Part shown: positions 3,666 through 59,515 of the stretch, in pieces
Position numbering within the stretch: position 1 is the stretch's first letter
How the letters are laid out: the number at the start of each line of letters is the position of its first letter
From: an uncultured Nitrospiraceae bacterium
GTDB lineage: Bacteria; Nitrospirota; Thermodesulfovibrionia; Thermodesulfovibrionales; SM23-35
NCBI GenBank assembly: GCA_963727775.1
Contig: CAVSHB010000001.1
Coordinates: 288,001-352,000 of the forward strand
DNA length: 64,000 bases
Reading direction: 5' to 3'
Made by a program: the position numbers and the translations under genes
The notes under the pieces: model-generated
What the model was told of the DNA's origin: nothing
The model's input: the letters and a program-made list of their open reading frames with translations, nothing else
Databases searched by the model: none

Positions 3666-3822
3666 GGTAACAACTTCGAATAAGCGTTATATATAGGAAT
3701 AGCATAAGATTAAACCTCACTATTTAATCATAGGGGAGACTAATTTTATAGCTATTAAAAAAAGAAACCTTCTGCAAGAATATGTTTATGGAGAAACAAA
3801 ATTCTTTTGACAGGAGGTTTCT

Positions 3823-5114
3823 ATGGAACAAGTAGATGGTATCAGACTTAGGGAGTTTCGACAAGTCAAGAAAGAGATACGTGGCTCCGACCAGTATTTG
3901 ATCGTCGGCATCGACGTGGCCAAAGAGAGGCACAATGCCTTTTTCGGCACGGCTAACGGTAAAACGCTGCACAAGGGAGTGATCTTTGACAACACGATTG
4001 AAGGATTTGAGAAACTGCTGACGCTGACAGAAGCACTTAAGGTTCAACATAACTTTACGAAGGCGGTCTTCGTCTTGAGCCCACAGCTAATTACCATAAG
4101 CCTTTGGGAGAGCATCTCATTAAGTGCGGGCATATGGTTGTTTTGTTATCGGGGGCGGCAGTAAAAAACAACCGACCGCTTCTGGATGGCAGATGGGACA
4201 AGCACGACACTAAGGATTCCGCAAACGTAGCCGACCTCATCTGTCAGGGGAAATTCCTCTACTATGAGTACCCGGACCCGAAGATGCAGGATCTGAGGAA
4301 TCTCCTTTCCTTAAAGAGACGACTCAAGAAAGAGGAGCACAGTATCCGGGTTCGCATCCGCAATCAGCTTCTGGCTCAGTATTTCCCTGAGATGGATCGG
4401 CATTTCGGCCCGGCAGTGAGCCTGGCCGTAGTCGGACGCTGTCTTAATCCCTCGGTAATCGCGGGGATGGAATTCGATGAATTCCGCAGGCATGTTGCCA
4501 TCAGCAGGATGAATATTGCCCAACAAAAGCTGTTGCATACAATTTGGCAGATAGCCCCTGAGTCCATTGGATGTTATGTAGGGGACGTAGTACCGTTCGA
4601 GGCGAAGGTGATGGTATCGAAGCTTAATCAGGTGCGAGAGACGATCAAAGAGGTGGAAGATAAAATAGAGGATATGTGCCTACAGTTTCCGGAATACCCA
4701 TGCCTTTTGAGTATCCCAGGCTTTGGGCCGGATGTTTCCTCAAAGGTCCTGGGAGCGATAGGTAATCCCTTTCGCTTTACGAGCTATAAGCAGATCCTGA
4801 AGATGGCTGGCTTCGATCTTTGCGCGGAACGCAGTGGAAAGGCTTCAAACGGCGCAACGCCGGTTATCTCCAAGCAAGGGAAAGCTGATCTTCGATATGC
4901 CTTGTATCAGGCTGCTTTCATCGCTTCCCATCATAACAAAGCCTTTATGACTTATTACACCAACAAGCTTAGAGGCAGACAGAGAGAAAAAGGAATCAGC
5001 ACGAAGATGCATGTTAAGCTGGCCGCAAAGCTCCTGGTTATTGCATGGACCCTGATGAAAAAGAAGGAGCTATTCGATCCAAAATATTTTAATAGGGAGG
5101 ATACTACAATATAG
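3823..5114 (+). pseudogene. IS110 DEDD recombinase, frameshifted
   Basis: GIDVAK, KHDTKD, ERSGK motifs; 1-bp deletion near 4072 relative to copy B (FGLEPT region). Confidence 0.9.
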
Positions 5115-5360
5115 GTCTGATCGAAATAATTCAACTGGGGGCTTCCTGTGAAGCTGTTTCTGTTCCAAGAGCCCTAAAAAATTACTTTGATGCGGAGAGC
5201 CCGAGAATAAGCGTTGAGGCTGAATGACCTCGTGAATGACAATACAGGGCCTCTCACTGAACTTGAGAATTTGGATAAAGGATGATGGGCGGTCCCGCAT
5301 TGCGGAACATGCCGGATAAACGTAACGATAAGAAATCAGGTTCGCTTTAAGTGAGAAAAA
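5115..5360 (+). ncRNA. Putative bridge RNA/seekRNA of IS110 copy A (boundaries approximate)
   Basis: Scaffold conserved with copy B; GAATAAGCGT (5205-5214) equals the left flank and GAATGAC (5234-5240) is the reverse complement of the right flank. Confidence 0.8.
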
Positions 5361-5489
5361 GCATCACAGAATTACTCCGTCGTTCGCAAAAACGAAATAG
5401 GAGGGCTTTGCCCTTTAAACGGGTCAACAAGCAACCTTATTAATTTTTATAGACTATTTTTTTTATTGACAGGAGGCACTATAGGATGT

Positions 5490-5525
5490 CATTCCGCTGC
5501 GAAGTTGCGGAATAACACTTATTCG
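5490..5525. repeat. Right part of palindromic target repeat (left part at 3672-3687)
   Basis: Reconstructed CGAATAAGCGTCATTCCGC-TGCGAAGTT-GCGGAATAACACTTATTCG hairpin; second copy at 50066-50108. Confidence 0.8.
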
Positions 5526-5551
5526 TTCTCGGCAATAGTGCCCTCTCTCTT

Positions 5552-21476: not shown

Positions 21477-21480
21477 GCTA

Positions 21481-22617
21481 GTGTAGTGTCCCACTAACGG
21501 CTTTACAATGAACGACCTTTTCCAAGATGGCATCGACCTTTTTCGTCCAGACAAACGGCTTGGGACTCTCGTTGTTGATCTGGATGAAGTCTTCTATTGC
21601 CGCAACAAGTTCCGAAACACTGCGAAAAACTCCACAGCGAATGCGTTTCCGTGTGATCTCTCCGAACCATCTCTCCACCAGATTCAACCATGAGGAACTG
21701 GTCGGCGTGAAATGAAGGTGAAATCGGGGATGTTTTTTCAGCCATGCTTTAACCTTGGGATGGTTGTGCGTACCATAATTATCCAGAATCATATGGACGC
21801 CCAATTCCGAGGGTACGGTGGCGTCGATCTGTCGCAGGAATTTCCGAAATTCGATGTTGCGATGCCTCGGATAACAGGAGCCAATAACTTTTCCCTCCAG
21901 CACATTCAACGCCGCGAACAGACACGTAGTGCCATTGCGCTTATAGTCATGGGTCATGGTTCGGCAGCGCCCTTTCTTCATCGGCAAGCCGGGTTGTGTC
22001 CGATCCAACGCTTGAACTTGGCTCTTCTCGTCAACACACAGCACCACCGCCTTGTCCGGCGGATTCAAGTACACTCCCACCACGTCCGTCAGTTTTTCAA
22101 CAAACCGCTTGTCCTTGGATAACTTGAATGTCTCAACGCGATGAGGCTGAAGACCGTGCGCGTCCCATATACGTTGCACCGTGGACTTGCCGACTCCCTG
22201 AGCCCTTGCCATCGAACGCACCGACCACTGCGTGGCATCGCGAGGTGTCGTGTGGAGAGTCGCTTCGACAATGGCCTTCACCCGGTCCGGCGGAAGAGCC
22301 TGTGGACTCGGGCCATGGGGTGCGTCCTCGGCCAATCCCATCGGTCCATGCTCTTCGAAACGTTTGCGCCATTGGATTACTGTCGGGCGGGAGGTGGACA
22401 GTTGGGCCGCGATAGCGTTGTTCGACAAGCCATCCGCCGCCAAAAGACAAATACTCGCTCGCAGTACTGCTCGCTGAGGGCTGGTCTTAGCCCGTTTCCA
22501 AGCTTCCAATGTCCTGCGCTGCTCTTTTGTCATCTCCAGAACTTCTGCTTTTTCCCACATGCCATATAGCTTACCATGACAACTAATCATTGTCCAGCTT
22601 TTAGTGGGACAGTACAC
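21481..22617 (-). mobile_element. IS630-family element with intact transposase
   Basis: 19/20 inverted repeat including TA flanks; CVDEK, LDNYGTH and SWLNLVERWF motifs. Confidence 0.92.
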
Positions 22618-29486: not shown

Positions 29487-29566
29487 TGGATATTCCTCTC
29501 AGTTCGGACACCTTATTTTTTGAGCTAAGCCATCACTCACCCTTGGCCCCGGACTTCTGGCCGTAC
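29487..29566. repeat. IS3-like end remnant; inverted copy of 32367-32442; 5' exon of the intron
   Basis: TGGATATTCC..CAGTTCGGACACCTTATTTTTTGAGCTAAGCCATCAC shared in inverted orientation. Confidence 0.75.
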
Positions 29567-31526
29567 GTGCGCCACGAGGCTGCACAGAAGATGAGGGAAG
29601 GCCCCTCGGAGTCGGCTTGCAGGAGCAGGCTCCAAACCACCTTAAGCTGCATCTGTTAAGAGCAGGTGTGGTGAGCGTTAAGGAAAAGGCACTGGGAAAA
29701 GTGTCAGGTATGAATCAGCAGAGATGAACGCAAGTGAACCACTGATGAGGTGTCGAAAGAAGTCAGGCGACGTCGAAACTGGTGACGTACGGCATGCCAG
29801 AATAAGCCCGAGAGAAACCTGTTTACTGACCGGGCGGCGTCCGGCATAAAGGTGGCATGACTCTGATTCAGGCTTTTGTGGGGAACGTGGGAAGCTGTGC
29901 ACTGATGTAAAGGGAGAAATCCAAATGGAGGTCCCATGAGGATGAGAGTACCGATGCGGGGCACAGCGACGGAGTAGCCCGTAGTAGTGATGAAGACTCG
30001 TAATGGAGTTGGAGCAAAGGGGCTACATTGTTCAGCTTTATTAAATGGTCAACCATTTGATGGGAGGAGCTATTGAGTAAAGCAAAGCCGTTTAGTATTT
30101 CCAAACAAGTAGTGCTGGATGCCTTTAAGCGTGTAAAGGCAAACAAAGGTGTTGCCGGAGTAGACGGGGAGTCGATTGCAGAGTTTGAGAAGGCCCTCAA
30201 AAGCAATCTCTATAAGCTCTGGAATCGGATGTCATCAGGGAGCTATTTCCCGCCACCGGTTCTTACTGTTGAGATACCGAAGGACAATGGAGGTATACGG
30301 TCTCTTGGGATACCAACGGTAGCAGACAGGATTGCGCAGATGGTGGTAAAGCTGTATCTGGAGCCTGAAGTGGAGCCGCACTTTCACCCAGACTCCTACG
30401 GGTACAGACCTGGGAAATCGGCAGTGGAGGCAGTAGGGGTAGCTCGACAGAGGTGCCGGAAGTACGGCTGGGTTGTGGATTTGGATATTAAAGGATTCTT
30501 TGATAATCTGAACCACGAGTTGGTGATGCGTGCAGTGCGCAAGCATACCAACTGCAAGTGGATACTGCTCTACATTGAGCGCTGGCTGAAAGCCCCCGCT
30601 CAACTACGGGACGGGACTCTTGCAAGTCGGGATAAAGGCACGCCCCAAGGGTCATTATCCAAAGCTTTTGATAAGGCGGAGTAATCTCGCCCCTACTGTC
30701 GAATATCTATCTTAACGAGGTGGATAAGATGCTGGAGAAGGCGAAAATCGTAACGAGCAAATCTGGTTTTACCCATGTCGAATATGCTCGTTTTGCGGAT
30801 GACCTTGTGGTACTCGTAGATGGGTATCGCCGCTGGGACTGGCTGGTAGAGAGGGTATATCGGCGACTTCTTGAGGAGTTCGCAAGAGTTGATGTAACAG
30901 TCAACGAAGAAAAGACACGACTGGTAGACCTGATGAAAGGAGAGAGCTTCAGCTTTCTGGGATTCGACATTCGGAGTGTCCGAACACTGAGTGACAAATC
31001 AGGAGTGCTTATCACGCCAAGGATGAAAGCGCGGACGACCCTTTTGCATAACCTCAAGGAAATCTTCCAGCGCTTCATATCGCAACCAGTGGGCCGGGTG
31101 ATAGAACTGATCAACCCGAAACTCCGGGGCTGGGTTAACTACTTTAGGGTGGGACATTCCAGCAGGTGTTTTCAGTACGTAAAAGATTGGGTGGAGAAGA
31201 AGATACGGCGGCATCTTATGAGGGCTCGAAAACGGGGAGGCTTTGGCTGGGACAGGTGGAGTAGAGACTGGTTTTACGGGCATCTTGGGCTTTATGCCGA
31301 TTATAAGGTGAGGTATTACCGTGGACTCGAAAGCGCTGCCAGCGGATAGGCATCATAACCCTTGAGGAGAAGCCAATAGGAAAGCGTAGTGCGGGAAATC
31401 CGCACGCTGCGTTTGACGTGGCAGGGAATGGAGAAGTGCCATGGCGAACCTAAACGGGCACGAAACTGGAAACGGTGGATACAGCCAAGGGGAGACCTAC
31501 GGTAACTCGCCATTCTTTGACCCTAC
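29567..31526 (+). mobile_element. Group II intron (chimeric)
   Basis: 5' GTGCG; EBS1/EBS2 pair with the 5' exon; domain V AAAGCGTAGTGCGGGAAATCCGCACGCTGCGTTT at 31381; 3' end GACCCTAC. Confidence 0.9.
30073..31349 (+). pseudogene. ltrA: Group II intron reverse transcriptase/maturase, broken at GTPQG
   Basis: GIPTVADR, DLDIKGFFD, GTPQG, RFADD, LRGWVNYF; 26 extra bp near 30650 shift the frame. Confidence 0.9.
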
Positions 31527-31584
31527 TGACGAGGGGGAGCTGGAGATAGAGCGTATTTGCCACTACGCCAGCTCTCTACTCTAT
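31527..31584 (+). mobile_element. 3' remnant (end of domain V plus domain VI) of a second, host group II intron
   Basis: TGACGAGGGGGAGCTGGAG...CCAGCTCTCTACTCTAT stem with bulged A and AY end. Confidence 0.7.
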
Positions 31585-31708
31585 AGACAGTGAGATATGT
31601 CTTAACCCGCTCAAAATCTCTATTTCTATGTGAACTGCGGTGCTTCACGGCGACTCGTTGGTGCGTTGAGTACAAGGAAGAATTGTATGTTCAGATCTGC
31701 AGAATTCT

Positions 31709-31942
31709 TCATGCACACTGGTGCCCAGTTTTTTTGACATACTCTCTCAAGGCATCGTTCATGAGTGTCTGATATCCGGATTTCTTTTCCGTAGCCAGTT
31801 TCTTGAAAAACAACAGAATGTCATTATCAAGTCTTATGGTCGTGGAAATCTTTTTGGGTCTATAAAACCTACCCCTTATTCCTTTTGAAAAGTCATACTC
31901 CTCTTTGAGTTCAAATGTTTCTTTCTTATCCAATTGTTTCAT
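31709..31942 (-). CDS. brnA: BrnA-family antitoxin
   Basis: EEYDFSKG, TIRLDNDI and GYQTLMNDAL motifs. Confidence 0.88.
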   Translation of the reverse strand: MKQLDKKETFELKEEYDFSKGIRGRFYRPKKISTTIRLDNDILLFFKKLATEKKSGYQTLMNDALREYVKKTGHQCA

Positions 31943-32216
31943 ATTGTTTCACCTCCTTTTTTGTTGCTTTCCTTGCATTTATTATTCTTATGATTTCATC
32001 AGCATTCTCTGTTAAGTAGTACAAATGTCCCACTACAATAATACTTCCTTTTCTTAGACTGCCAACAGTAATCCATCTCTCATCGAAATAATCGAATCTT
32101 TTGTCCAGAATGGATACATGGAGAGGATCATCAAATACCTCTGCTACATAATCGAATGATATGCCATGCTTTCTTATGTTCTCTTTATTCTTATTTGCAT
32201 CCCATTTAAATTCCAT
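31926..32216 (-). CDS. brnT: BrnT-family ribonuclease toxin
   Basis: MEFKWD..K...NIRKHGISF and IRIINARKAT motifs. Confidence 0.9.
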   Translation of the reverse strand: MEFKWDANKNKENIRKHGISFDYVAEVFDDPLHVSILDKRFDYFDERWITVGSLRKGSIIVVGHLYYLTENADEIIRIINARKATKKEVKQYETIG

Positions 32217-32366
32217 GCTTAGTTACATTTTAAGATAAAGTAACAACAGTGTCAATACAATCTGCTTCAGCGGTATACAGCCTTTAGTATTTATTCCCAT
32301 TAATAATCAGCAGATTTTCTGACCCATCCAAGCACGTTGACTTCAGGAAGCACATCTCCGTGTATA

Positions 32367-32442
32367 GTACGGCCAGAAGACCGGTGCTATGGGTGATGGC
32401 TTAGCTCAAAAAATAAGGTGTCCGAACTGCGCGGAATATCCA
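32367..32442. repeat. IS3-like end remnant; unoccupied intron target
   Basis: Inverted copy of 29487-29566, ending CA. Confidence 0.75.
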
Positions 32443-48845: not shown

Positions 48846-49706
48846 ATGGGACGCTATAGAAAAATTCTCGTTGCGATAGACGGTTCGGAATTAAGCCTGC
48901 ATGCGCTAAGAGAATCTCTCAAGCTCGCGGCAGACGAAAAAAGCTGGGTGACTGTTGTTTCAGTTGTCCCCTCTTATGAAGGTGATCTGGGATCATTGTG
49001 GATAAATAATATTAAGGATTCTATGAGAAAGCCCTGTGCACTGGCTATTTCAGAGGCCGAAAAAATAGCCAAAGAAGAGAGGGCTTTGGTTAAGACTGTC
49101 TGTGAAGAAGGTGAAATATACGAAAAGATTGTCGACCTTGCCGATGCGGAAAACTGTGATGTTATAGTGATGGGCAGAAAAGGTATGAGCCGCCTTGAAA
49201 GGACCCTCATCGGAAGCGTCACCGCAAGGGTCATCGGCAATACATGGAAGGATGTTCTCGTGGTCCCCGAAGGCGTTGCAACAGGCTGGAAAAACATCCT
49301 TCTTGCGACCGACGGTTCCCGTTACAGCGAGGCCGCAACAAACAGAGCTATAGAACTTGCCAAATCCTATGGCGGGTATTTGAAAATTGTATCTGTTGTG
49401 GACATACCGCCTGAGTTTTATTCACACATAAAAGCATTAAAGGCGGCGGATGAACTTATTCAGAAAGCAAAAGGAGTTGTCGCGGCTGTAAAGAATAAGG
49501 CCGAAGAGCAAGGAATAAAAACCGATACATTTGTAAAAGAGGGTGAGGCGTCGAAAGTAGTAACAGATCTTGCCGGGGAACAAAATGTCGATGTAATCGT
49601 TATAGGCTCGCACGGTCGGACCGGCCTCAGGAGGCTTCTTATGGGGAGCGTTGCTGAAAGTGTAATCGGGATTGCCTCATGCCCTGTGCTCGTGACACAT
49701 ATCTGA
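48846..49706 (+). CDS. Tandem universal stress protein
   Basis: Two USP domains; GSHGRTGLRRLLMGSVAE. Confidence 0.92.
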   Translation: MGRYRKILVAIDGSELSLHALRESLKLAADEKSWVTVVSVVPSYEGDLGSLWINNIKDSMRKPCALAISEAEKIAKEERALVKTVCEEGEIYEKIVDLADAENCDVIVMGRKGMSRLERTLIGSVTARVIGNTWKDVLVVPEGVATGWKNILLATDGSRYSEAATNRAIELAKSYGGYLKIVSVVDIPPEFYSHIKALKAADELIQKAKGVVAAVKNKAEEQGIKTDTFVKEGEASKVVTDLAGEQNVDVIVIGSHGRTGLRRLLMGSVAESVIGIASCPVLVTHI

Positions 49707-49714
49707 TTGTCCGC

Positions 49715-49752
49715 GGGTGTAATAAGGCGTGAATCCGCGACTTATTACACCC
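49715..49752 (+). terminator. Stem-loop after the USP operon
   Basis: GGGTGTAATAAG...CTTATTACACCC; no U-tract. Confidence 0.45.
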
Positions 49753-49974
49753 TGCATCCTTATCTCTTAACCTGCACTATTCATAAAATTGCCGACTGTC
49801 ACCAAGCTTTTGCATCCCCATGTCCTACGGTTAATGGCGGACACGGAATTTTCGCTTATTCTCGGTCGTCCCGACCTCCGAGGTAAATTCTTTCTTCGAA
49901 AGAATTTAAAACCGCTCAAATACTGCGTTCGCCATTATTGACCCACAAACTGCTATAGGAAATGTCACGACGAA

Positions 49975-50048
49975 TATCGGAGTCCGACCCAGCGTGCCAC
50001 TCGGTCCGATTTATTACTGCCACCTGTTCCGGACCAAATCTGCCACCT
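49975..50048. repeat. IS21-like terminal tandem repeats (remnant)
   Basis: TGCCAC at 49995, 50018 and 50041 (23-bp period). Confidence 0.55.
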
Positions 50049-50065
50049 TGGCATGGGGAAGTCTG

Positions 50066-50108
50066 AACTTCGAATAAGCGTTATTCCGCTGCGAAGTTGC
50101 GGAATAAC
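50066..50108. repeat. Palindromic repeat; empty near-match of the IS110 copy A target
   Basis: AACTTCGAATAAGCGTTATTCCGCTGCGAAGTTGCGGAATAAC. Confidence 0.85.
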
Positions 50109-50249
50109 GTGTGGAGAACATCCTATAGTGCCTCCTGTCAAGACAAAAAACATCTGGGAAATTTACTTAAATATCAATGATCGTTATCCGAGATCTTGCA
50201 AGAACAATAGTCTGCCGTACGTCCATCTGGACGATAGTATTTTTTCTCG

Positions 50250-50496
50250 ACGCACTCTCTCACTACAATCGAACTTGATCTCTGATAGTTACGTTTATCC
50301 GACGTGTTCCGCATTGAGCGTACCGCCCATCATCCCTTATCCAGACTCTCAAGTTCAGTGAGAGGCCCTATATTGTTCTCCACGAGGTCTTTCGCCTCAA
50401 CTAAGCCAAGCTCGGGCTCTCTGCGTCTTGTTTTTGGGGCCTCCAGAACAGAAACGGCTTCACAGGAAGCCCTCAGTTAAGTTCTTTTGATGTGGC
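50250..50496 (-). ncRNA. Putative bridge RNA/seekRNA of copy B (boundaries approximate)
   Basis: Guides GGCTTAGT (50400-50407) and GTGGAGAAC (50375-50383) match the element's own flanks. Confidence 0.8.
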
Positions 50497-51789
50497 CTAT
50501 ATTTGGATATCCCCCTTATTGAGATATTTTGGATCGAATAGCTCCTTCTTTTTCATCAAGGTCCATGCGATAACCAAAAGCTTTGCGGCTATCTTTACAC
50601 GCATCTTCGTACTAATTCCCTTTTCCCTCTGCCGACCTCTGAGCTTATTGGTGTAATAAATCGTAAAATCTTTGTTATGAAAGGAAGCGATTAGAGCAGC
50701 CTGATATAAGGCGTAGCGAAGATCGGCTTTCCCTTGTTTGGAGATTACCGGCGTTACGCTGTTTGAAGTCTTTCCGCTTCGCTCCGCGCAAAGGTCGAAA
50801 CCAGCCATCTTCAGGACCTGCTTGTCGCTCGTAAAGCGAAAGGGATTACCTATCGCCCCGAGAACCTTTGATGAGACATCCGGCCCAAAGCCAGGGATAC
50901 TCAAAAGGCATGGGTATTCCGGAAACTGTAGGCACATATCCTCTATTTTATCTTCCACCTCTTTGATCGTCTCTCGCACCTGATTAAGCATGGATACCAT
51001 CACCTTCGCCTCGAACGGCACTGCGTCTCCTACATAACATCCAATGGAATCAGGGGCTATCTGCCAGATCGCCTGCAGCAGCTTTTGTTGGGCAATATTC
51101 ATTCTGCTGAGGGCAACGTGCCTGCGGAATTCATCGAATTCCATCCCGGCGATCACCGAGGGATTAAGACAGCGGCCGACTACGGCCAGGCTCACCGCTG
51201 GGCCGAAGTGGCGGTCCATTTCAGGGAAATACTGGGCCAGAAGCTGATTGCGGATGCGAACCCGGAGGCCATGTTCCTCTTTCTTGAGTCGTCTCTTTAA
51301 GGAAAGGAGATTCCTCAGATCCCGCATCTTCGGATCCGGATATTCATAGAATAGGAATTTCCCTTGGGAAATGAGGTCGGCTACGTTAGAGGAATCCTTG
51401 GTGTCGTGCTTATCCCATCTGCCATCCAGAAGCGTGCGGTTGTTTTTTACTGCCGTCCCCGCTACCAAAACAACCATATGCCCACACTTAATAAGATGCT
51501 CTCCCAGAGGCTTATGGTAATTGGCTGTGGGCTCAAGACCAAAGACCACCTTTGTAAGGTCATGCTGGACCTTAAGCGCTTCTGTCAGCGTCAGCAGTTT
51601 CTCGAATCCTTCAATCGTGTTGTCAAAGATCACTCCCTTGTGCAGCGTTTTGCCGTTAGCCGTGCCGAAAAAGGCATTGTGCTTCTCTTTAGCCACGTCG
51701 ATGCCGATGATCAAATACTGATCGGAGCCACGTATCTCTTTCTTGACTTGTCGAAACTCCCTAAGTCTGATACCATCTACTTGTTCCAT
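50497..51789 (-). CDS. IS110 DEDD recombinase, intact
   Basis: GIDVAK, LEPT, KHDTKD and ERSGK motifs. Confidence 0.95.
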   Translation of the reverse strand: MEQVDGIRLREFRQVKKEIRGSDQYLIIGIDVAKEKHNAFFGTANGKTLHKGVIFDNTIEGFEKLLTLTEALKVQHDLTKVVFGLEPTANYHKPLGEHLIKCGHMVVLVAGTAVKNNRTLLDGRWDKHDTKDSSNVADLISQGKFLFYEYPDPKMRDLRNLLSLKRRLKKEEHGLRVRIRNQLLAQYFPEMDRHFGPAVSLAVVGRCLNPSVIAGMEFDEFRRHVALSRMNIAQQKLLQAIWQIAPDSIGCYVGDAVPFEAKVMVSMLNQVRETIKEVEDKIEDMCLQFPEYPCLLSIPGFGPDVSSKVLGAIGNPFRFTSDKQVLKMAGFDLCAERSGKTSNSVTPVISKQGKADLRYALYQAALIASFHNKDFTIYYTNKLRGRQREKGISTKMRVKIAAKLLVIAWTLMKKKELFDPKYLNKGDIQI

Positions 51790-52187
51790 AGAAACCTCCT
51801 GTCAAAAGAATTTTGTTTCTCCATAAACTTATTCTTACAGGAGGTTTCTATTTTTTAATAGCTATAAAATTAGTCTCCCTTATGATTGAATGGGGAAGTT
51901 TGATCTTATGCCATTTCTATATATAACTAAGCCGGTGCGCCGGATATGGGGATTCGATTAATTCTCCCGGAACTTTTTCTATCGAAGAGGATATGGTTTA
52001 TGGAGCATCTGTCTTATTTTGATCTGCATGAGATCATCCTGATACGAAAATTGAGGCTGAGATTGCGACCATTGCAGCTGGATAGTATCCCAAGGTCTGA
52101 TTTCAGACAATAGGGGAGCATAGCGAAACAGGATGCTGTTTTCGCAGGTTGATAGAGCTATGATTTTTGAGCTATCGCCGGTGTGCA

Positions 52188-52436
52188 TCAGTATCGATCC
52201 GGAGGGCTATTGCACCTGGAAGGGAGCAAATACTCAATCGTGACCATTGTGCCCTTCTTGCAAACCGGGCAGGTATTGATATCGATACCGTAGATTCTGA
52301 GCAACTGATCCTGCCAGGTCTCTGATTTTTCTTCTTCTTCTTCTTTTGTTTCGGTTTTACAACTGCCGATGAGCTTACGGCATAGCGCGATGTTGTCTTT
52401 ACGCTTTCTGTTTGCGAGGAGTCCGAAGTGCCTGAT
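52188..52436 (-). pseudogene. IS91-family transposase C-terminal fragment
   Basis: IRHFGLLANR...CPVCKKG continues FVRIR from the other side of the RIT. Confidence 0.88.
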
Positions 52437-52535
52437 TTATGTTATATATTCACTTATGTTGCGTCGTTTGTGAAAGGCCTTGTTATTGCACAATGTCATC
52501 GTTAACGACACAACATAAGTAAATCCCTCTTCGGG

Positions 52536-53531
52536 TTAAAGTGCTTTTAAGAATGCCATCAACCCCGGCTGATCTTTCCACCGTCTTGATTGCTCTGAAG
52601 TAAATATCTCACAGTGGGCAAGTGCCTTTGCCTTCATTTCGAGATCGACCTCAGCATAGACATTTGTGGTATCTAGCGACACATGCCCCAGCCATGCACG
52701 GATTGTATTAATATCCACACCTGCGCGAAGAAGGTGAACTGCGCAGGAATGACGAATTATATGTGCACTGACTCTTTTCGTTCTCATTGAGGGGACTTTG
52801 TTGCTTGCTTTGATAACATAACGCCTAACGAGGGCATGAATGCCGAAGCGAGTGATTGTCTGCCCCCGACAGTTGAGGAAAACCTGTTCGCTATCCTGGC
52901 GATCGGCAATGAGAGTGCGTAAAGTATTGGCTGTTAAAGACCATAAAGGACAGATTCGTGTCTTGCCTCCCTTGCCTTTAATCTTGACTGAAAGCGAATA
53001 ATCCAGGTCGAGATCGTCTACAGTCATATTCGCAGCTTCATGGGCGCGGGCGCCAGTATTGTAAAGAAAAAGAAGTACGGCATAATCTCTAAAGCCTTGT
53101 TTGGTGGAAGTAACGGGAGCATTAAGCAGGGCATCCATTTCTTGTTTGTCGAGATAAGACATCGCAGCCTTTGCAGTTTTTTTGAAAGGGATAGCTCTGA
53201 TCTGTCCACACCAGATGATGTGTTCCGGACATCGTTCGCCGATAAAACCGGCGAGGGCGTGAATTGCGGCAAGGCGCTGGTTGCGAGTGGCTATAGAACA
53301 GGATCGATGCTCCTCTATATAAAGCAGAAAAAGACGAATTACCTCAGGGGATATATGCTCTACAAGCAGCTTGTCTATAGGTTTTCTGACCTTCTCAGCG
53401 ATGAAAGGGAGCATCAAGGCCAGAGCATCGCGATAACTGGATTGTGTATTTAGCGACAGATTACGCTCTTCCACCAAGTATTCCATAAGGAAGCGTCGCA
53501 CCCAATATCCGATAGAAGTTACGTTAGACAT
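52536..53531 (-). CDS. RIT tyrosine recombinase C
   Basis: YNTGAR, HIIRHS and WLGHVSLDTTNVY motifs. Confidence 0.92.
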   Translation of the reverse strand: MSNVTSIGYWVRRFLMEYLVEERNLSLNTQSSYRDALALMLPFIAEKVRKPIDKLLVEHISPEVIRLFLLYIEEHRSCSIATRNQRLAAIHALAGFIGERCPEHIIWCGQIRAIPFKKTAKAAMSYLDKQEMDALLNAPVTSTKQGFRDYAVLLFLYNTGARAHEAANMTVDDLDLDYSLSVKIKGKGGKTRICPLWSLTANTLRTLIADRQDSEQVFLNCRGQTITRFGIHALVRRYVIKASNKVPSMRTKRVSAHIIRHSCAVHLLRAGVDINTIRAWLGHVSLDTTNVYAEVDLEMKAKALAHCEIFTSEQSRRWKDQPGLMAFLKAL

Positions 53532-54468
53532 GATTCACGTCCGATAGAACATAATGTTCAAAACGCAAATTTGCTTCCCGCAAAAGATCAGGAGTCATGC
53601 TCAAATAGCATTGGGTCTCCGCCACATCAGTATGGCCCAAATAGGTTGATAATTGAGGCAGCAAGCGCTGGACATCAGCGCCTTCCCGGTACCAGGCTTC
53701 AAGACGGTGAACTGAAAAAGTGTGACGAAGGTCGTGAATCCTGGGATAGTATCGAGTGCCGTCCCGGCGAGGCATCCCGGATAGGTTTCGCAAACGACTG
53801 AAAGTTTTTTGCATGCGGCCATAGGATAAAGCGTGGCCAGTGCGTGTGGCAAAAAAGGCGGAATCTTCCTTAAGTCGGCAGGGCAACAGTCGCCTTTTTC
53901 CCAGATAGGAGTCAAGGTGGTCAGTTAACCGAGGGCCGATGGGTACGAGACGTGTCTTATAGAATTTGGTATTGCGCACTGTGATAAGGCTATCCGAAAC
54001 GTTAACATCAGCAATCGTTAGAGAAAGCGCTTCGCTGATACGAAGGCCTGTTCCATAAAGGGTAAGCAAAATGGTTCGGAAGGTGGTTGCCTGAAGAGGA
54101 CTTATTGGGGATTTAAGCGAGTTGGTAGCGGAAAGGAGGCGGTGCAGTTCCTCGGTGGTGTAAATATATGGTTCCAGAGTCGCCGGACGTTTAGGTACCA
54201 TCTTTGGAAGCGGAGACTTGTCGATATGACCATGGGTCAGAGCAAAGCGATAGAAACCACAGAGGACTTCATACTTCCGGTGCCAGAAGGTAGTGATCGG
54301 ACCTTCACCTGCAAGGAATGCTGCTGCAGTATCGGGATTAACTTCTTCGATCTCTATATTGCCCATAGCTTTGCAAAAAGATCTGAGTACCACAGCATCA
54401 GACCGGTAACACATACCAATGGACTGTTTTAGCGACACATACTCGGTAACAAGTTCTGAGAGTTTCAT
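53524..54468 (-). CDS. RIT tyrosine recombinase B
   Basis: TGLRISE, TKFYKTRLVP, HDLRHTF and LSTYLGH motifs. Confidence 0.92.
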   Translation of the reverse strand: MKLSELVTEYVSLKQSIGMCYRSDAVVLRSFCKAMGNIEIEEVNPDTAAAFLAGEGPITTFWHRKYEVLCGFYRFALTHGHIDKSPLPKMVPKRPATLEPYIYTTEELHRLLSATNSLKSPISPLQATTFRTILLTLYGTGLRISEALSLTIADVNVSDSLITVRNTKFYKTRLVPIGPRLTDHLDSYLGKRRLLPCRLKEDSAFFATRTGHALSYGRMQKTFSRLRNLSGMPRRDGTRYYPRIHDLRHTFSVHRLEAWYREGADVQRLLPQLSTYLGHTDVAETQCYLSMTPDLLREANLRFEHYVLSDVNHV

Positions 54469-55706
54469 TCCAGCCCTCCCATATCAAACTTAGCTACCTC
54501 GCGAAGACCTGACAGATTCACCTTGGCATAGATCCTCGTGGAGAGAGAACTTCGATGCCCTAGGTGATCGCCGACCTCCTTGAGGGAGAAGCCCTCGGCA
54601 ACCAGGTGGGCGGCGCACGCATGCCGCAATGAGTGGGGCCCATGATGGTGAGTGCGTATCCCGAGCTTCACCATTCTGTTACTGACCACAGGATAAAGTG
54701 CTCCTAATGAAAAAGGACGATATGGGGGCAAGAGAGTGAGAAATATCTCTCGATATGAAGAGTGGGGACGCACTTCCTGTAAATAGCGGATTATCGCGTT
54801 GCCTACTATTGGGATCAATGGGTATGTTTGTCTTCCTCTCAGCTTAACTCGGGGTACCGACATAAGTCTCTGTTCCCAGTCGATATCGTCAAGCCTGAGA
54901 GTTGCTACCTCAGTTGATCTCAACCCATAGATCGCAAAAAGCATCACGATGGGTTTGTCTCGTATGTCACTGGCTTGATCTGTCTCCATGCTCTCTATCA
55001 AGAGTCTCACGTTTCCCCAAGATGGTCCCGACGGCAATTGTTCTTGGGCAAAGATACGAGGGCCACGTATATCGGGGGCGATTGAAGACGAACACCACCC
55101 CCGTGAAGCCGCGTACTTGAAAAAGGCCTTCAGCGCGGTCGCCATGTGTTTAACCGATATGCGACAATTGCCCTTGTCACCGTAATGGGTAAGAAACGCG
55201 TCAATATCTTTGAGGCAAACGGCTGAGATATCACAACTCCGAGTGCCATACCAGCGTAGAAACCGTTCAACGTAAGAGCAGTTCCCTCGGATAGTCTGAG
55301 AAGTGAACCCTCGTTCGTTCTTCATCCATGTCCTGAAATCTTCAAGCAAATGACCAAACGGAATGGAAGTATCTTCTCTCCAACAGCCCAAAAAACGTAG
55401 CCACGATCTTGCTGCATTGACAAAGCGACTGCGAGTACAGTGCGGATTAAGCGCTTTTCCCCAATATCGTTCCCGTTCTGTCCATCCTCGGGCGACAGCT
55501 TCGACCTGATTCAGGGTTACTCCGTTTTCAAAAGAAATACGTAGCTTCTTTGCGACCCATAAAAGTTCTCGCGCAATGTTCTGTAAAGTCGAGAGAGAAT
55601 ATCCTTCTTGCTCGCAGTGCTTAAGATAACGCTCCCTCTCCTCTTTGTACGGGGCCTTCTTGTGACGGGATAGAATTGAGAGTTTTGTGTAAAGCTTTTC
55701 AAACAT
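54465..55706 (-). CDS. RIT tyrosine recombinase A
   Basis: YGLRSTE, HSLRHA and LGHRS..STRIYAK motifs. Confidence 0.92.
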   Translation of the reverse strand: MFEKLYTKLSILSRHKKAPYKEERERYLKHCEQEGYSLSTLQNIARELLWVAKKLRISFENGVTLNQVEAVARGWTERERYWGKALNPHCTRSRFVNAARSWLRFLGCWREDTSIPFGHLLEDFRTWMKNERGFTSQTIRGNCSYVERFLRWYGTRSCDISAVCLKDIDAFLTHYGDKGNCRISVKHMATALKAFFKYAASRGWCSSSIAPDIRGPRIFAQEQLPSGPSWGNVRLLIESMETDQASDIRDKPIVMLFAIYGLRSTEVATLRLDDIDWEQRLMSVPRVKLRGRQTYPLIPIVGNAIIRYLQEVRPHSSYREIFLTLLPPYRPFSLGALYPVVSNRMVKLGIRTHHHGPHSLRHACAAHLVAEGFSLKEVGDHLGHRSSLSTRIYAKVNLSGLREVAKFDMGGLE

Positions 55707-55843
55707 GACCGGACCTCCTCTAATAGAGACTTTCCAGCCATATAACGGCAATTACTTATGTGTTGTCAAATCAAAAATAATCATTGCAAATTAAGAAAAT
55801 TGACTGACTTCACAACATAAGTGAATACATAACATAAATCAGG

Positions 55844-55863
55844 TTATGTGTTTAAGCACATAA
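55844..55863. repeat. 20-bp palindrome beside the RIT end
   Basis: TTATGTGTTTAAGCACATAA between ATCAGG and CCTGAT. Confidence 0.85.
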
Positions 55864-56454
55864 CCTGATGCGCACAAATCGATGCGGAAGCACATGAAGA
55901 AGGAACCTTCTTATGAACTCATCGGCCTTAAGAGTCATGATCTTTTGTTTATCACCATCGGCATAGTCCCGCCAGCGGAAGGAAACATTGCCGTCTTCAA
56001 CGTTTAGGACACGATTATTACTGATAGCAATCCTGTGGGTATATCTGCCCAGATACTTGAGGACACCCTCGGCGCCGTCAAAAGGCGGCTTGCAATATAC
56101 AACCCACTTCTTATGGTAGAACTGTCCTCTGAACACCTCAAAGGTTCCGGGGTCTTTAAGATGACGGATACCGCCAGGGAAGATAAGATCACCTGATTCA
56201 AACCTGTTTTTGAGATGGTCCAGGAACTTGCCCCTGAACAATGAGGACATAACCCTTACAGGCATGAAAAAACCTTTCCTGCACGATACCCAATGTTTTC
56301 CATCAGGTGACAATCCGCCGCCGGGTACGACACAGTGAATATGGGGATGATCCATAAGGTTTTGTCCCCAGGTGTGAAGGATGCCGATAAAGCCTGTATG
56401 TGCGCCGAGGTGTTTCGGATTATTGGAGAGCTCCATAAGTGTCTCGGAGACTGC
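55864..56454 (-). pseudogene. IS91-family (HUH/Y2) transposase, central fragment
   Basis: LHTWG, HPHIH, YLGRYTHR and RRFLLHVLP motifs; N-terminal part deleted. Confidence 0.9.
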
Positions 56455-57127
56455 CTGAGCGTATGTGGGCTTACTGGTTTTGTTATGCCGGCGCGCTCTT
56501 TGGCCTCAACGAATATCTGTCGTATTGTACTTAGACATACATGAGCTCCTTCCTTTTGTCAAACAACCAGTCTTTCGGACGATATTCTCTCCAGTATTGC
56601 CTCAGACACTCAAGAGCGGTCTGAGACAGGATGGTGTAACGGTCTTTGCCCCCCTTGCCTTGCTGAACTCTTACCATCATCCGCTTGCTGTCGATATCGC
56701 TTACCTTAAGGTGTGCTGTTTCGCTTATCCGGAGGCCTGCAGAATAGGTAATCGTCAGGATCGCCCGGTGCTTTAGATTCTCCATGACGGAAAGCAAAGT
56801 CTTGACTTCTGCCAAATCCAGAACCACAGGAAGTTTGTTTTTCCCTCTGGGACAATGAATCTTCTCCACGACCTCTTCCCGTTTTAACGTGTGCTTATAT
56901 AGAAACTTCAAACCCTGGTAATAAAACCGGTATGTCCCCTTGGCCAACTTCCGTTCGTTCAAAAGATACAGCAAATACTCTCTGAGTTCCTTCTCTCCAA
57001 GTTCCTCCGGCGACTTGCCGAAGTACTTTGCATAATTGCTTACTTCCCTCAGATAAACCTTTTGGGTCTTGGGGGTAAGTCCCTTCAACTGAAGCTCTGC
57101 CAACATCTGTTCTCTCAATGTGCTCAT
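56455..57127 (-). pseudogene. Tyrosine integrase (SAM-like N-terminus), frameshifted and truncated at HTLR
   Basis: KLPVVL, YSAGLRISE and GKGGKDR motifs; frameshift after WLF; fused to the transposase fragment. Confidence 0.85.
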
Positions 57128-57466
57128 ATCCAATCTCCTTTGAATCGATATGCGCCGACGAAGGCCGACGGGGAAACAAAGGAAATTGTAAAAAGACTTC
57201 GATTGTTCAACAAGGGGGGGAATAGCAGACTAACTTCTACAACTCAGAAAAAGGTCTATCTTATCCAGAAAAGGCTCACGCCTCGTTAACCACCGCGCAG
57301 CGGTTTAGTTCTTCGGTACAAACTCTTCATGAGTTGCCGCTTCGCATAAATGTGGAGCTTGCTATATTGTTGTAGAGTTAGGCCTTGTTAAAGAAGGCTA
57401 TACTCTTTCTTGATTCAGACCAATGTGCGAGTTGGTTAAATCCAAACCAAAGAAAGGAGTATAGCC

Positions 57467-58729
57467 ATGAAGAAGAGTAAAACAAAAAAGTTTAAAGTAG
57501 TCAATGGTAGAACGATGATTGTGACAGCTGATATGGGAAAGGATAGACATTTTGGATACTGGCGCTGTCCGGACGGAAGCGATGTGAAGCCCTTTGCCTT
57601 CTGGAACAACGGCAGGGGTTTCCAAGAGTTCTGGGATCGTGTATCTTATGCCAAAAAGCTCCATAACATCGAAGATATTGTTTTTGGATACGAGTCCACC
57701 GGGCCGTATGCCGAACCTCTTGTTCATTTCATGCGTGCGAGAGGCGTACACATGGTACAAGTAAGCCCTATGCACACTAAGAGGCTTAAGGAGCTTCAGG
57801 GTAATTCGCCGAACAAGACCGACCAGAAAGACCCAAAGGTTATCGCTGATATTATGGCACTTGGCCACGCCCTGACTGTAGTGATCCCGGAAGGTCCAGC
57901 GGCCGAACTCAGGAGGCTCACTCAGGCCAGGGAAAGGAGCAACGAGCGTTATGTATCCCTGGTGAACCAGCTCCAGAGCTTGCTTGCGATTATCTTTCCT
58001 GAGTTTTTGCAGGTAATGAAGGATGTAAAGACGTTGACTGCCCGATATCTCCTTGCGCAGTGCCCAGCACCCAAGGATATTGTCGCGTACAGTCTTGATA
58101 ATTTGAGTGCAACGATCAATAAGGTCAGCCGCGGAAAGCTGAAGGAAGATCGCGCCAAGGCCCTCTATGAGGCTGCAACAGCTTCTATAGGTGTAACCGA
58201 AGGCATGACGAGCATTATACGTGAGATAAGAGAACTTCTTATCGCCATGGACGCTGCTGAGTCCTTTACCGGGGATCTGGAAAAGGAAATGGGGTATTAT
58301 CTGAAGCAGATTCCCTACAGTGGCTCGATCCTCTCGATAAAGGGGATTAAAGAGGTTACCACTGCCGGTCTTATCGGTGAAGTGGGTGATTTTCGGAAGT
58401 TTCAAACCCTCTCCGAGATCCTAAAGCTCGCAGGGCTGGACCTTTATGAGATCAGTTCTGGCCAATACAAGGGGAAGCGACGCATATCTAAGCGAGGCCG
58501 TCACCTGCTGCGTAAACTTTTGTACTTTGCCTCGCTCAACACAGTCCGCAGAGGTGGAATAATGCACGATCAATATCAAAAGTACCTTGAGCGGGGCATG
58601 CCTAAGACCAAGGCGCTGATCGCCGTAGCAAGAAAACTTCTTGGAATCATATTTGCTGTTGTGCGTGACCAAAGTGTATACAAAAAAGATTTCTCTATAG
58701 TCTCACTTCAATACCAGGAGGCTGCATAA
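57467..58729 (+). CDS. IS110 DEDD recombinase
   Basis: ADMGK, YESTG, KTDQKD, ISSG and ISKRG motifs. Confidence 0.93.
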   Translation: MKKSKTKKFKVVNGRTMIVTADMGKDRHFGYWRCPDGSDVKPFAFWNNGRGFQEFWDRVSYAKKLHNIEDIVFGYESTGPYAEPLVHFMRARGVHMVQVSPMHTKRLKELQGNSPNKTDQKDPKVIADIMALGHALTVVIPEGPAAELRRLTQARERSNERYVSLVNQLQSLLAIIFPEFLQVMKDVKTLTARYLLAQCPAPKDIVAYSLDNLSATINKVSRGKLKEDRAKALYEAATASIGVTEGMTSIIREIRELLIAMDAAESFTGDLEKEMGYYLKQIPYSGSILSIKGIKEVTTAGLIGEVGDFRKFQTLSEILKLAGLDLYEISSGQYKGKRRISKRGRHLLRKLLYFASLNTVRRGGIMHDQYQKYLERGMPKTKALIAVARKLLGIIFAVVRDQSVYKKDFSIVSLQYQEAA

Positions 58730-58743
58730 CTTATAGTATTGGC

Positions 58744-58910
58744 GTGTAAGCGGGGAGATTACCGACCTGATACCTAAGGCGGCTGAGCCGACCTTCATGC
58801 GGAGCTTGTAACTCCCCGCTTGCACCTTAGTCTCGATTAAGCAAGGTCAGGGCTCTGTTGAGACCCTCGAATTACCAGTGTCAGGCAAGGTGCTACACCA
58901 AAGACTAAAG
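58744..58910 (+). ncRNA. Putative bridge RNA/seekRNA of element C
   Basis: Stem GTGTAAGCGGGGAG / CTCCCCGCTTGCAC enclosing ACCTGATAC and ATGCGGAGCTTG, which match the flanks; second stem TTAGTCT / AGACTAA. Confidence 0.65.
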
Positions 58911-59329
58911 TGACTTCCTCCTAATGGAGATGGAAGTGAGAAGGTTGATATAAGGTTAAGTGAAAGGAGCCAAGAGGAGGCATAAAAAAGAGAAACGCCG
59001 AATCCAGGGGATACCGTAATATGGGTCATGCTGAGATAATCGATCCTATAGCTTTCTACGAAGCCGCTTTTTCAGAATTGGCTCTCAAACATGCAGAATG
59101 GATTACGTAATGAGACAAGGGATCTGGGGGCAAAGAACGAAGCAGAAACCATTGAAGCCAGGAAACCTTAGTAGTGGCTTGTCTCTATCAGAGGGGAGTT
59201 ACTCCGTAAAAAGTTCTTGACAATAATAAACCAGTATCAGGTGGACCTCGCGGTGGCCGGGTTCTTCAGAACGTATCGAGTGGGTCAGATAACCTTTTCA
59301 TAAGGTCTCCACTTTGGTAAAATAATGTC

Positions 59330-59515
59330 ATGGATTTATTTAAATCATTCACTTTTAAATGGTGGCAGGGAAGCTTTTTCAAATTATCCATGATTTCGCT
59401 TGGAATCATCTTGGGTGTCTACTTCCAAACATTCTTCCTCAAGTGGATCGTTATTGTGACAATTATTTTTATTGTGCCTGCAATCTATCTTTTCCGCGTA
59501 TGGTGGAGGCAATGA
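59330..59515 (+). CDS. Small two-TM hypothetical protein
   Basis: 61-aa hydrophobic ORF. Confidence 0.55.
   Translation: MDLFKSFTFKWWQGSFFKLSMISLGIILGVYFQTFFLKWIVIVTIIFIVPAIYLFRVWWRQ

Follow-up and report, generated by a model that had tools for sequence, protein, structure and literature searches.

The DNA considered here is a stretch of 64,000 nucleotides (nt) from an uncultured Nitrospiraceae bacterium (positions 288,001 to 352,000 of contig CAVSHB010000001.1 in assembly GCA_963727775.1), to which we refer as a whole as the window. Its minus strand carries an insertion sequence (IS) of the IS110 family, here called copy B, that is lodged in the 3' end of an IS91-like mobile element, and elsewhere the window holds a paralog, copy A. 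We describe the guide sequences carried by the predicted RNA of copy B, the target that these guides match and the evidence that this target belongs to the IS91-like element.

Coordinates of copy B are read on the minus strand unless noted. Its boundaries were set by comparing the four full copies and a 3' fragment in the source genome (G000) with each other and with an uninterrupted homolog of one of their insertion sites in a related genome (G023). These comparisons place a duplicated GT core around the element, at 51927-51926 and 50119-50118. The initial annotation had given the element as 50111-51943, and copy B is indeed found there, but that range takes in the flanking target halves as well. 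The left flank reads ...CACCGGCTTA, with GGCTTA at 51933-51928, and the right flank reads TCTCCAC (50117-50111). Within the element, 136 nt of non-coding DNA lie upstream of the single gene and 377 nt (50496-50120) lie downstream. The features of copy B are as follows.

50118..51927, minus strand: copy B, an IS110-family element, including both GT cores, with an interior of 1806 nt
50497..51789, minus strand: transposase/recombinase gene of copy B, 430 amino acids, intact
50249..50427, minus strand: structured non-coding RNA scaffold (putative bridge or seek RNA) downstream of the transposase gene, supported by covariation
50400..50407, minus strand: left guide, GGCTTAGT, which forms the 5' strand of the target-binding internal loop and is equal to the left flank plus core (51933-51926)
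50384..50399, minus strand: apical hairpin between the guides (GAGGC / GACCTC), whose five pairs are invariant in 23 of 23 sequences
50375..50383, minus strand: right guide, GTGGAGAAC, which forms the 3' strand of the internal loop and whose reverse complement equals the core plus right flank (50119-50111)
50136..50141, minus strand: TTGACA in the right end, a putative part of a junction promoter, where CTTGACAGG is kept in the right ends of relatives

The source genome holds four full copies of this element, B1 to B4, at C1:338111 (the window copy), C1:1571870, C3:218953 and C3:109137. They are 99.7-100% identical, and the transposase open reading frame (ORF) is intact in all four. There is also one partial copy, a 3' fragment that represents a truncated third paralog (C2:587826-588574).

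The transposase of copy B matches the Pfam models DEDD_Tnp_IS110 (PF01548, E 2.2e-22) and Transposase_20 (PF02371, E 7.3e-17), and its score of 168.8 bits against the NCBIfam model NF033542, 'IS110 family RNA-guided transposase', exceeds the cut-off of 140. It is also homologous to the solved IS621 transposase 8wt6 (E 1.1e-15) and to the ISCro4 transposase (6e-14). D, E, D, D and S residues, found in the motifs GIDvAKE, LEpT, HDTkD and iSKqG, align with those of 8wt6 that we take to be the catalytic D, E, D, D and Tnp-domain serine of IS621. If copy B were circularised, TTGACA of the right end would come to lie 17-18 nt from TTATAT/TATATA of the left end (51926-51920), and the joined ends would form a promoter reading into the transposase gene. 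A junction promoter is described for ISEc11 in the portion of that report used here (PMC11187229).

Downstream of the gene, the RNA scaffold is supported by a 44-pair structure which, across 23 aligned family members, pairs in 88.2% of cells, compared with 30-46% when the partners are slid by one to three columns. This structure was drawn by hand before testing, which favours it, and RNAalifold alone gave just 21 pairs. Sixteen pairs change on both sides, and none of 500 shuffles reaches the observed covariation score. An alternative pairing of the basal helix (GAGAG with CTCTC) was drawn but is not counted in these figures. In RNA sense, the order of elements is GGCTTAGT, the hairpin TGAGGC-GAAA-GACCTC and GTGGAGAAC, and the two guide strands form the two sides of an internal loop between the basal helix and the invariant apical hairpin. 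The left guide agrees with the left target half plus core at all eight positions, and the reverse complement of the right guide agrees with the core plus right half at all nine.

Relatives of copy B, about 30 in number, were drawn from related genomes, from a pattern scan of genome contigs and from metagenome contigs. The genome-contig scan returned 82 pattern matches, of which 28 are true family members and 54, lacking similarity to copy B, were dropped as chance matches; by our own estimate, about 70 chance matches would be expected for 18 fixed bases. Eight of the 16 loci from the metagenome scan belong to the family (those named are L145, L149, L150, L151, L152, L155 and L157), and the atypical L150 and L155 were left out of the B-type contexts described below. 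The usual target of the family is ...CAAC-GT-CCCY, from which copy A and the B clade depart, and GT is found on both ends of A, B1 to B4 and most relatives.

The ends of these elements were placed by conserved end motifs, independently of the guides. Because left-end placement failed or was rejected for 20 of the 31 sources, the left-side statistic is based on 11 elements, whose left guides match their own flanks at 5.73 of the 7 non-core positions, compared with 2.20 when they are set against the flanks of other elements. Right guides match their own flanks at 4.33 of 7 positions (n=27), compared with 3.09 for the flanks of others. When the six distinct guide pairs are permuted in all 720 ways, the true pairing alone reaches the observed 62 of 84 matches. 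The covariation of guides and flanks, which the initial annotation had proposed to examine over all genomic and metagenomic copies, can be followed through about 30 relatives, and we regard it as strongly supported by these comparisons of sequence.

The source genome itself provides a further comparison, in the form of copy A.

3686..5489, plus strand: copy A, paralog of copy B, with cores at 3686-3687 and 5488-5489

Copies A and B are 88.8% identical over 1677 nt, and the transposase gene of copy A is frameshifted (ORFs 3823-4164 and 4104-5114). At the homologous positions of its RNA, copy A carries the guides AATAAGCGT (5206-5214) and GTGAATGAC (5232-5240), which match its flanks, cgAATAAGCGT and GTCATTCcg, at nine of nine and seven of nine positions. 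That the two paralogs use one scaffold with different guides, and that each pair fits its own flanks (8/8 and 9/9 for B), is thus just as had been proposed at the outset. The truncated third paralog carries GGTTTAGT and GTGAAGAAC, which brings the number of guide sets on this scaffold in G000 to three. Copy A and the third paralog appear to show that the lineage retargets by changing the two guide strands alone.

The mobile element into which copy B is inserted has the following parts.

51928..57312, minus strand: body of the IS91-like element, in which a tyrosine-recombinase ORF (56531-57133) is truncated and a fragment of the Y2 transposase (55852-56436) is left
57295..57312, plus strand: left (5'-terminal) inverted repeat GCGCAGCGGTTTAGTTCT, unoccupied in the window
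51926..51940, minus strand: inner part of the right inverted repeat, GCGCACCGGCTTAGT, which holds the left half of the B target and is conserved in related ends
50071..50117, minus strand: final 47 nt of the IS91-like element, severed from the rest by copy B, made up of TCT, which ends the repeat, then CCACAC, then a hairpin and lastly GCTTATTCG, and containing the right half-site of B (50117-50111)

The Y2 transposase fragment of the window copy is 194 amino acids long. Compared with its relatives, this copy is short of 543 nt, by which the C-terminus of the integrase and the zinc domain of the transposase are gone. An intact relative in G023 encodes a tyrosine recombinase of 307 amino acids and an IS91-family transposase of 397 amino acids (NF033538, 461 bits) with the domains Zn_Tnp_IS91 (PF14319) and Y2_Tnp (PF04986), in keeping with the IS91 family, whose Y2 (HUH-type) transposase has a zinc-binding domain at the N-terminus. 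Also within the IS91-like transposase gene of the window copy is an element encoding a trio of tyrosine recombinases (52431..55843, minus strand), which is bounded by 44-nt inverted repeats. A second copy of this trio element (G000 C3:215054-218465) occupies the same site in the opposite orientation, with overlaps of about 31 nt at both ends, and this suggests either that it was inverted between its own repeats or that the site was entered a second time.

The inverted repeats of the IS91-like element are 18 nt long (GCGCAGCGGTTTAGTTCT on the left, GCGCACCGGCTTAGTTCT on the right). In the window, the right repeat reads GCGCACCGGCTTAGT followed by TCT, with copy B inserted between the two. The initial annotation had assigned GGCTTAGTT to an inverted repeat of an integrase-carrying, IS91-like element, and the repeat pair GCGCACCGGCTTAGTTCT / GCGCAGCGGTTTAGTTCT (57295-57312) bears this out. 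It had also taken CTCCAC for the host site that this element entered, such that the target of copy B would be a hybrid of element and host DNA and only occupied sites would be recognised. Two observations accord with such a junction target. The left guide GGCTTAGT is indeed part of the IS91-like inverted repeat, and in relatives inserted at left repeats (L078, L149 and probably L081) the distal four positions of the right guide face host DNA.

However, the IS91-like element does not end at the insertion point of copy B. The stretch 50117-50071 consists of GTTCTCCACAC, the hairpin and GCTTATTCG, and the three IS91-linked B copies of G000 have 47 nt in common beyond the insertion point (TCTCCACAC, hairpin, GCTTATTCG), diverging only past GCTTATTCG. 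In other genomes, 10 of 12 related IS91-like ends are uninterrupted and run from GGCTTA through GTCCTTCAYAC and the hairpin to GCTTATTCG, after which the flanks are unrelated. The hairpin shows compensatory stem changes among these ends. Furthermore, G023 holds two copies of 2579 base pairs (bp) that are 100% identical, are surrounded by unrelated DNA on both sides, begin with AGAACTAAACC... and end with ...GCTTATTCG, and thus include the stretch in question. Given these uninterrupted relatives and the G023 copies, TCTCCAC, together with 40 further nt, is element DNA, and the whole target of copy B lies inside the IS91-like element. CTCCAC is therefore a part of the element end and not of the host, and the target of copy B is carried by the IS91-like element itself. 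Nor does the restriction to occupied sites agree with the data, as B4 lies outside any IS91-like element and its site is found uninterrupted in G023. For copy B, we consider a target that is half IS91-like and half host to be very improbable.

Judging from the same comparisons, the right repeat is subterminal: copy B is inserted 47 nt from the true 3' end (50071) and splits the repeat from the terminal hairpin. The IS91 family inserts beside the tetranucleotide GTTC/CTTG, but the 3' flanks that follow GCTTATTCG vary (for example AAGT, TTAG, TAAT, TAAG and GACT) and do not present this context. The two related ends that are not among the 10 uninterrupted ones are an end in G036, which has a B-like element at the same position, and a deleted form in G003. 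Two IS91-like 3' ends, G023 L174 and G003 L051, read GGCTT-CACAC and have lost exactly 6 nt (AGTCCT) around the B-type core. This loss destroys the B-type target and could be either an excision scar or an escape allele.

A different doubt about the 47-nt hairpin module arises from its resemblance to palindromes that stand alone. Copy A sits in such a palindromic repeat, CGAATAAGC-GT-CATTCCGC...GCGGAATAAC, whose hairpin is the same as that of the IS91-like 3' end. The repeat is rare, with six copies in G000 at up to four mismatches. One could accordingly suppose that the module is an independent palindromic host repeat and that IS91-like elements insert just upstream of it. Five solo palindromes have the same hairpin but no IS91-like element, namely three in G000 (the copy A site, C1:630592 and C3:224035) and two in G023 (L170 and L180), and the one at C3:224035 even carries GTTCTCCACAC. 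Against this, GTYCYTCAYAC is present in all 10 uninterrupted IS91-like ends and absent from four of the five solo palindromes, GTTCT belongs to the inverted repeat that is common with the left end, and from genus to genus the module varies together with its IS91-like element, the stem showing compensatory changes. The 5' flanks of IS91-like copies, moreover, never have the other arm of the palindrome, for which reason insertion of the IS91-like element into the palindrome was rejected as well. We believe a host origin of the module to be distinctly unlikely.

The solo palindromes have the general form CGAATAAGYG-hairpin-CRCTTATTCG. That of copy A is at window positions 5490-5535, and the one at C3:224035 has GTTCTCCACAC as a bulge. 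Candidates for their origin are mini-elements, products of one-ended transposition, or target sites. In the IS91-like terminal module beside copy B, positions 50070-50092 (plus strand) form an unoccupied near-match to the target of copy A, AATAAGC-GT-TATTCCG. The left guide of A fits it at nine of nine positions and the right guide at six of nine, and the hairpin variant that is commoner in relatives would give seven of nine. Because this A-type near-match lies in the module at the side of copy B, A and B can be seen to aim at two parts of one 60-nt module.

The placement of B-type elements agrees with the target that their guides predict. Among the 10 loci with a readable left flank, nine are in inverted repeats of IS91-like elements, and always between GGYTTAGT and YCT. 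Right repeats are occupied at B1-3, G036 L006, L151 and L157, and left repeats at L078, L145 and L149. All five right-repeat elements with readable guides carry the left guide GGCTTAGT, and three left-repeat elements carry GGTTTAGT, the third base of the guide being C in the former and T in the latter (eight loci, six distinct contexts). The right guide in turn tracks the variant of the repeat, as it specifies GTTCTCCAC in G000, GTTCTTCAC in L151, where the site reads GTTCTTCAT, and GTCCTTCAC in L157, where it reads GTCCTTCAT. At left repeats, the element itself contributes no more than GTTCT, and the rest of the right guide is set against host DNA. The junction idea therefore holds in a weak form for these insertions, although not for copy B. 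No unoccupied site with two or fewer mismatches to the 15-nt target is left in G000.

The exception is B4 (G000 C3:109140-110955), which is intergenic, downstream of a 174-amino-acid ORF, and has surroundings without similarity to the IS91-like element. Its empty site in G023 reads ...CTCTTAGT followed directly by TCTCTCTC (the right side also being given as TCTCTCTCATTTC) and has a single GT, which confirms both the element boundaries and the core. That copy B is aimed at another mobile element, as first proposed, is accordingly upheld by the match of its guide to the IS91-like repeat and by the habit of B-type elements at nine of 10 readable loci, whereas the suggestion that B-type copies always lie in integrase/IS91 ends fails at B4. 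G023 has two such uninterrupted homologs of the B4 site (C1:584302 and C1:2405438), in near-identical surroundings, and this locus may itself belong to a repeated element. Two other loci have unusual arrangements. At L145, a B-type element is bordered by the IS91-like left repeat to the left and by the 3' hairpin module to the right, and looks like a recombinant of two insertions. At L150, the left end of an IS91-like element passes straight into the RNA hairpin, and the point of fusion is the guide sequence that both have in common.

It is also necessary to ask whether copy B is only a passive passenger, which entered an IS91-like end once, long ago, and has since been copied with the composite, in which case its contexts would be silent on current targeting. 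The inner flanks of B1, B2 and B3 are identical over 120 nt on the left and 47 nt on the right, the insertion of the recombinase trio is common to the window and C3 copies, and copy B, the IS91-like 3' part and the trio element are similarly diverged (99.8-100%). These findings are what a copied composite would yield. However, B4, for which an empty-site homolog exists, represents a separate insertion, and the transposase ORF is intact in four of four copies. B3 and B4 have three substitutions in common that are absent from B1 and B2, a hint that the IS91-like end was entered more than once, which favours at least two events or else gene conversion. Moreover, in other genomes and metagenomes, both repeats of IS91-like elements that are just 68-90% identical are occupied, with guide variants that match. 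We therefore judge it unlikely that copy B is a mere passenger.

Taken together, these data make it highly probable that copy B is an intact and recently active IS110-family insertion sequence, guided by a bridge or seek RNA to the target GGCTTA-GT-TCTCCAC inside the right repeat of an IS91-like element. We infer its activity from the identity of its copies (99.7-100%) and the intact ORFs alone, and guidance by RNA is predicted from homology to IS621 and ISEc11. By the same homology, copy B would excise as a circle, in which the junction promoter would drive the transposase gene, and the transposase would bind an RNA made from the 3' region. In this RNA, GGCTTAGT would serve as the sense of the left half plus GT core, and GTGGAGAAC would be complementary to the core plus right half. 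The strands of the loop would thereby pair with both target strands around the GT core, and the circle would be inserted in one orientation. Recombination at the GT core would leave the inserted copy with GT on either side. In the IS91-like element, the right repeat is parted from the last 47 nt by 1.8 kilobases (kb). Because the target lies within the IS91-like element, copy B would parasitise a sequence that another mobile element carries, and it may affect that element.

Several observations weigh against this interpretation or provide it with no help. No circle junction and no joint across B was seen in the contigs of four sequencing runs; in X1 and in X3, one contig each joins the hairpin to a repeat of the GTCCTT type that is uninterrupted. 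An Rfam 15 scan of 49500-59500 with E values up to 1 gave a chance match to a long non-coding RNA as its sole result, and hence no curated model fits the RNA. A donor-binding loop could not be assigned with confidence. A conserved internal loop in the RNA alignment (GGATAAGGGATGATGGG / CGGATAAACGTAAC) matches the joined element ends only in runs of 4-5 nt, and these ends are too conserved to give covariation. The pairing of the right guide is short in most relatives, at 5-6 nt including the core, and the related genomes are non-independent samples. Lastly, the three IS91-linked copies of G000, with their identical inner flanks, could be one composite that was copied.

A more far-reaching possibility, which we put forward only tentatively and consider doubtful at present, is that copy A, copy B and the GGTTTAGT variant form a guild of RNA-guided elements that are specialised on parts of one IS91-like terminal module and are co-evolving with it. 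Under this proposal, guide variants would track repeat variants, there would be separate specialists for the left and right repeats, and insertion would disable or throttle the IS91-like element. The ends of G023 L174 and G003 L051 that lack 6 nt might then be escape alleles or excision scars. If true, this would amount to a natural arms race between two mobile elements in which programmable guides are used.

Several further mobile elements are present in the window and genome. At 57349-59246, about 37 nt outside the IS91-like 5' end, lies a different IS110-family element with a 420-amino-acid transposase (NF033542, 188.7 bits) and four copies in the genome. About 47 nt to its left recur in diverged form beside the copy at C1:783803-785734 and may be a repeated target of its own. 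A fourth IS110-family type (G000 C3:106783-108416, with further copies at C3:201826, C2:574265, C4:121010 and C2:386192) has a transposase about 27% identical to that of copy B. One of its copies is 720 nt away from B4. A member of a second IS91-like family (C2:571876-573722), whose Y2 transposase is 46-48% identical, lies at a distance of about 800 nt from another copy. Elsewhere in the window, positions 29487-32442 hold a unit of roughly 3 kb between 53-nt inverted repeats, which are 94% complementary and contain GGCTTAGCTC. Another insertion sequence is indicated at 21478-22617 by a 379-amino-acid ORF with DDE_3 and helix-turn-helix domains, an IS630-like transposase.

RNA-guided target choice in IS110 and IS1111 elements, and its natural variation among relatives, are already established in the sections of the earlier reports on which we draw here and below (PMC11208160; PMC11187229). 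Copy B reveals no new mechanism, and the idea that it senses a junction fails. The value of the B lineage is rather that it offers a clean natural case of bridge or seek RNA retargeting: a single genome has three sets of guides on the same scaffold, every one of them fitting its own flanks, and more variants come from related genomes. In addition, the variants of guide and inverted repeat make up a panel for tests of mismatch tolerance and co-evolution.

The likeness of copy B to the IS621 bridge RNA system, as far as the cited account extends (PMC11208160), includes a recombinase with DEDD and Tnp domains, the arrangement of the target-binding loop, duplication of a dinucleotide core at the two ends, and guides that vary freely on a fixed scaffold. 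In contrast to IS621, whose RNA is encoded in the left end, the RNA of copy B lies downstream of the gene. The core is GT instead of CT, the transposase has 430 amino acids compared with 328 in the solved chain, and the B scaffold resembles a three-way junction in which no clear donor-binding loop was found. With the IS1111 elements and their seekRNAs (PMC11187229, in the part considered), copy B has in common that much non-coding DNA lies downstream of the transposase gene, that short stretches of the RNA match both strands, top and bottom, of the target, and that the joined ends would form a promoter. However, subterminal inverted repeats of 11-13 bp are given there as a mark of the IS1111 group, whereas copy B has, in the 45 nt next to its ends, no inverted repeat better than one of 5 bp, TATAG. 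Copy B has the core on both sides, no long terminal inverted repeats and a two-strand target loop, all in keeping with the IS110 family. We have filed it under that family without a subgroup, because its downstream non-coding region is IS1111-like but the 11-13-bp repeats are lacking.

No IS110-family element directed at IS91-like ends came to light in the literature searched, which is no proof of absence. IS91-like elements that carry an integrase appear to join a short list of dedicated landing sites for IS110-family elements, best known from IS4321 and IS5075. These two IS1111-family elements were reportedly described by Partridge and Hall in 2003 (J Bacteriol 185:6371) as inserting specifically in the terminal inverted repeats that Tn21-family transposons carry. 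The likeness to copy B, which is one of habit, is a fixed insertion position in the inverted repeat of another mobile element. However, the target of copy B is a rolling-circle-type, IS91-like element and not a member of the Tn3/Tn21 family, its right repeat is subterminal, and in B-type elements the guide variants can be read and track the left versus the right repeat. IS110-family elements that target repetitive palindromes are said to have been treated by Tobes and Pareja in 2006. Copy A is comparable in this respect, since it too is an IS110-family element in a palindromic repeat, as is ISPpu9 in repetitive extragenic palindromic (REP) sequences. In contrast to the repeats described for ISPpu9, in the part of that report relevant here (PMC12288879), the palindrome of copy A is rare and is identical with the hairpin that forms the 3' end of the IS91-like element.

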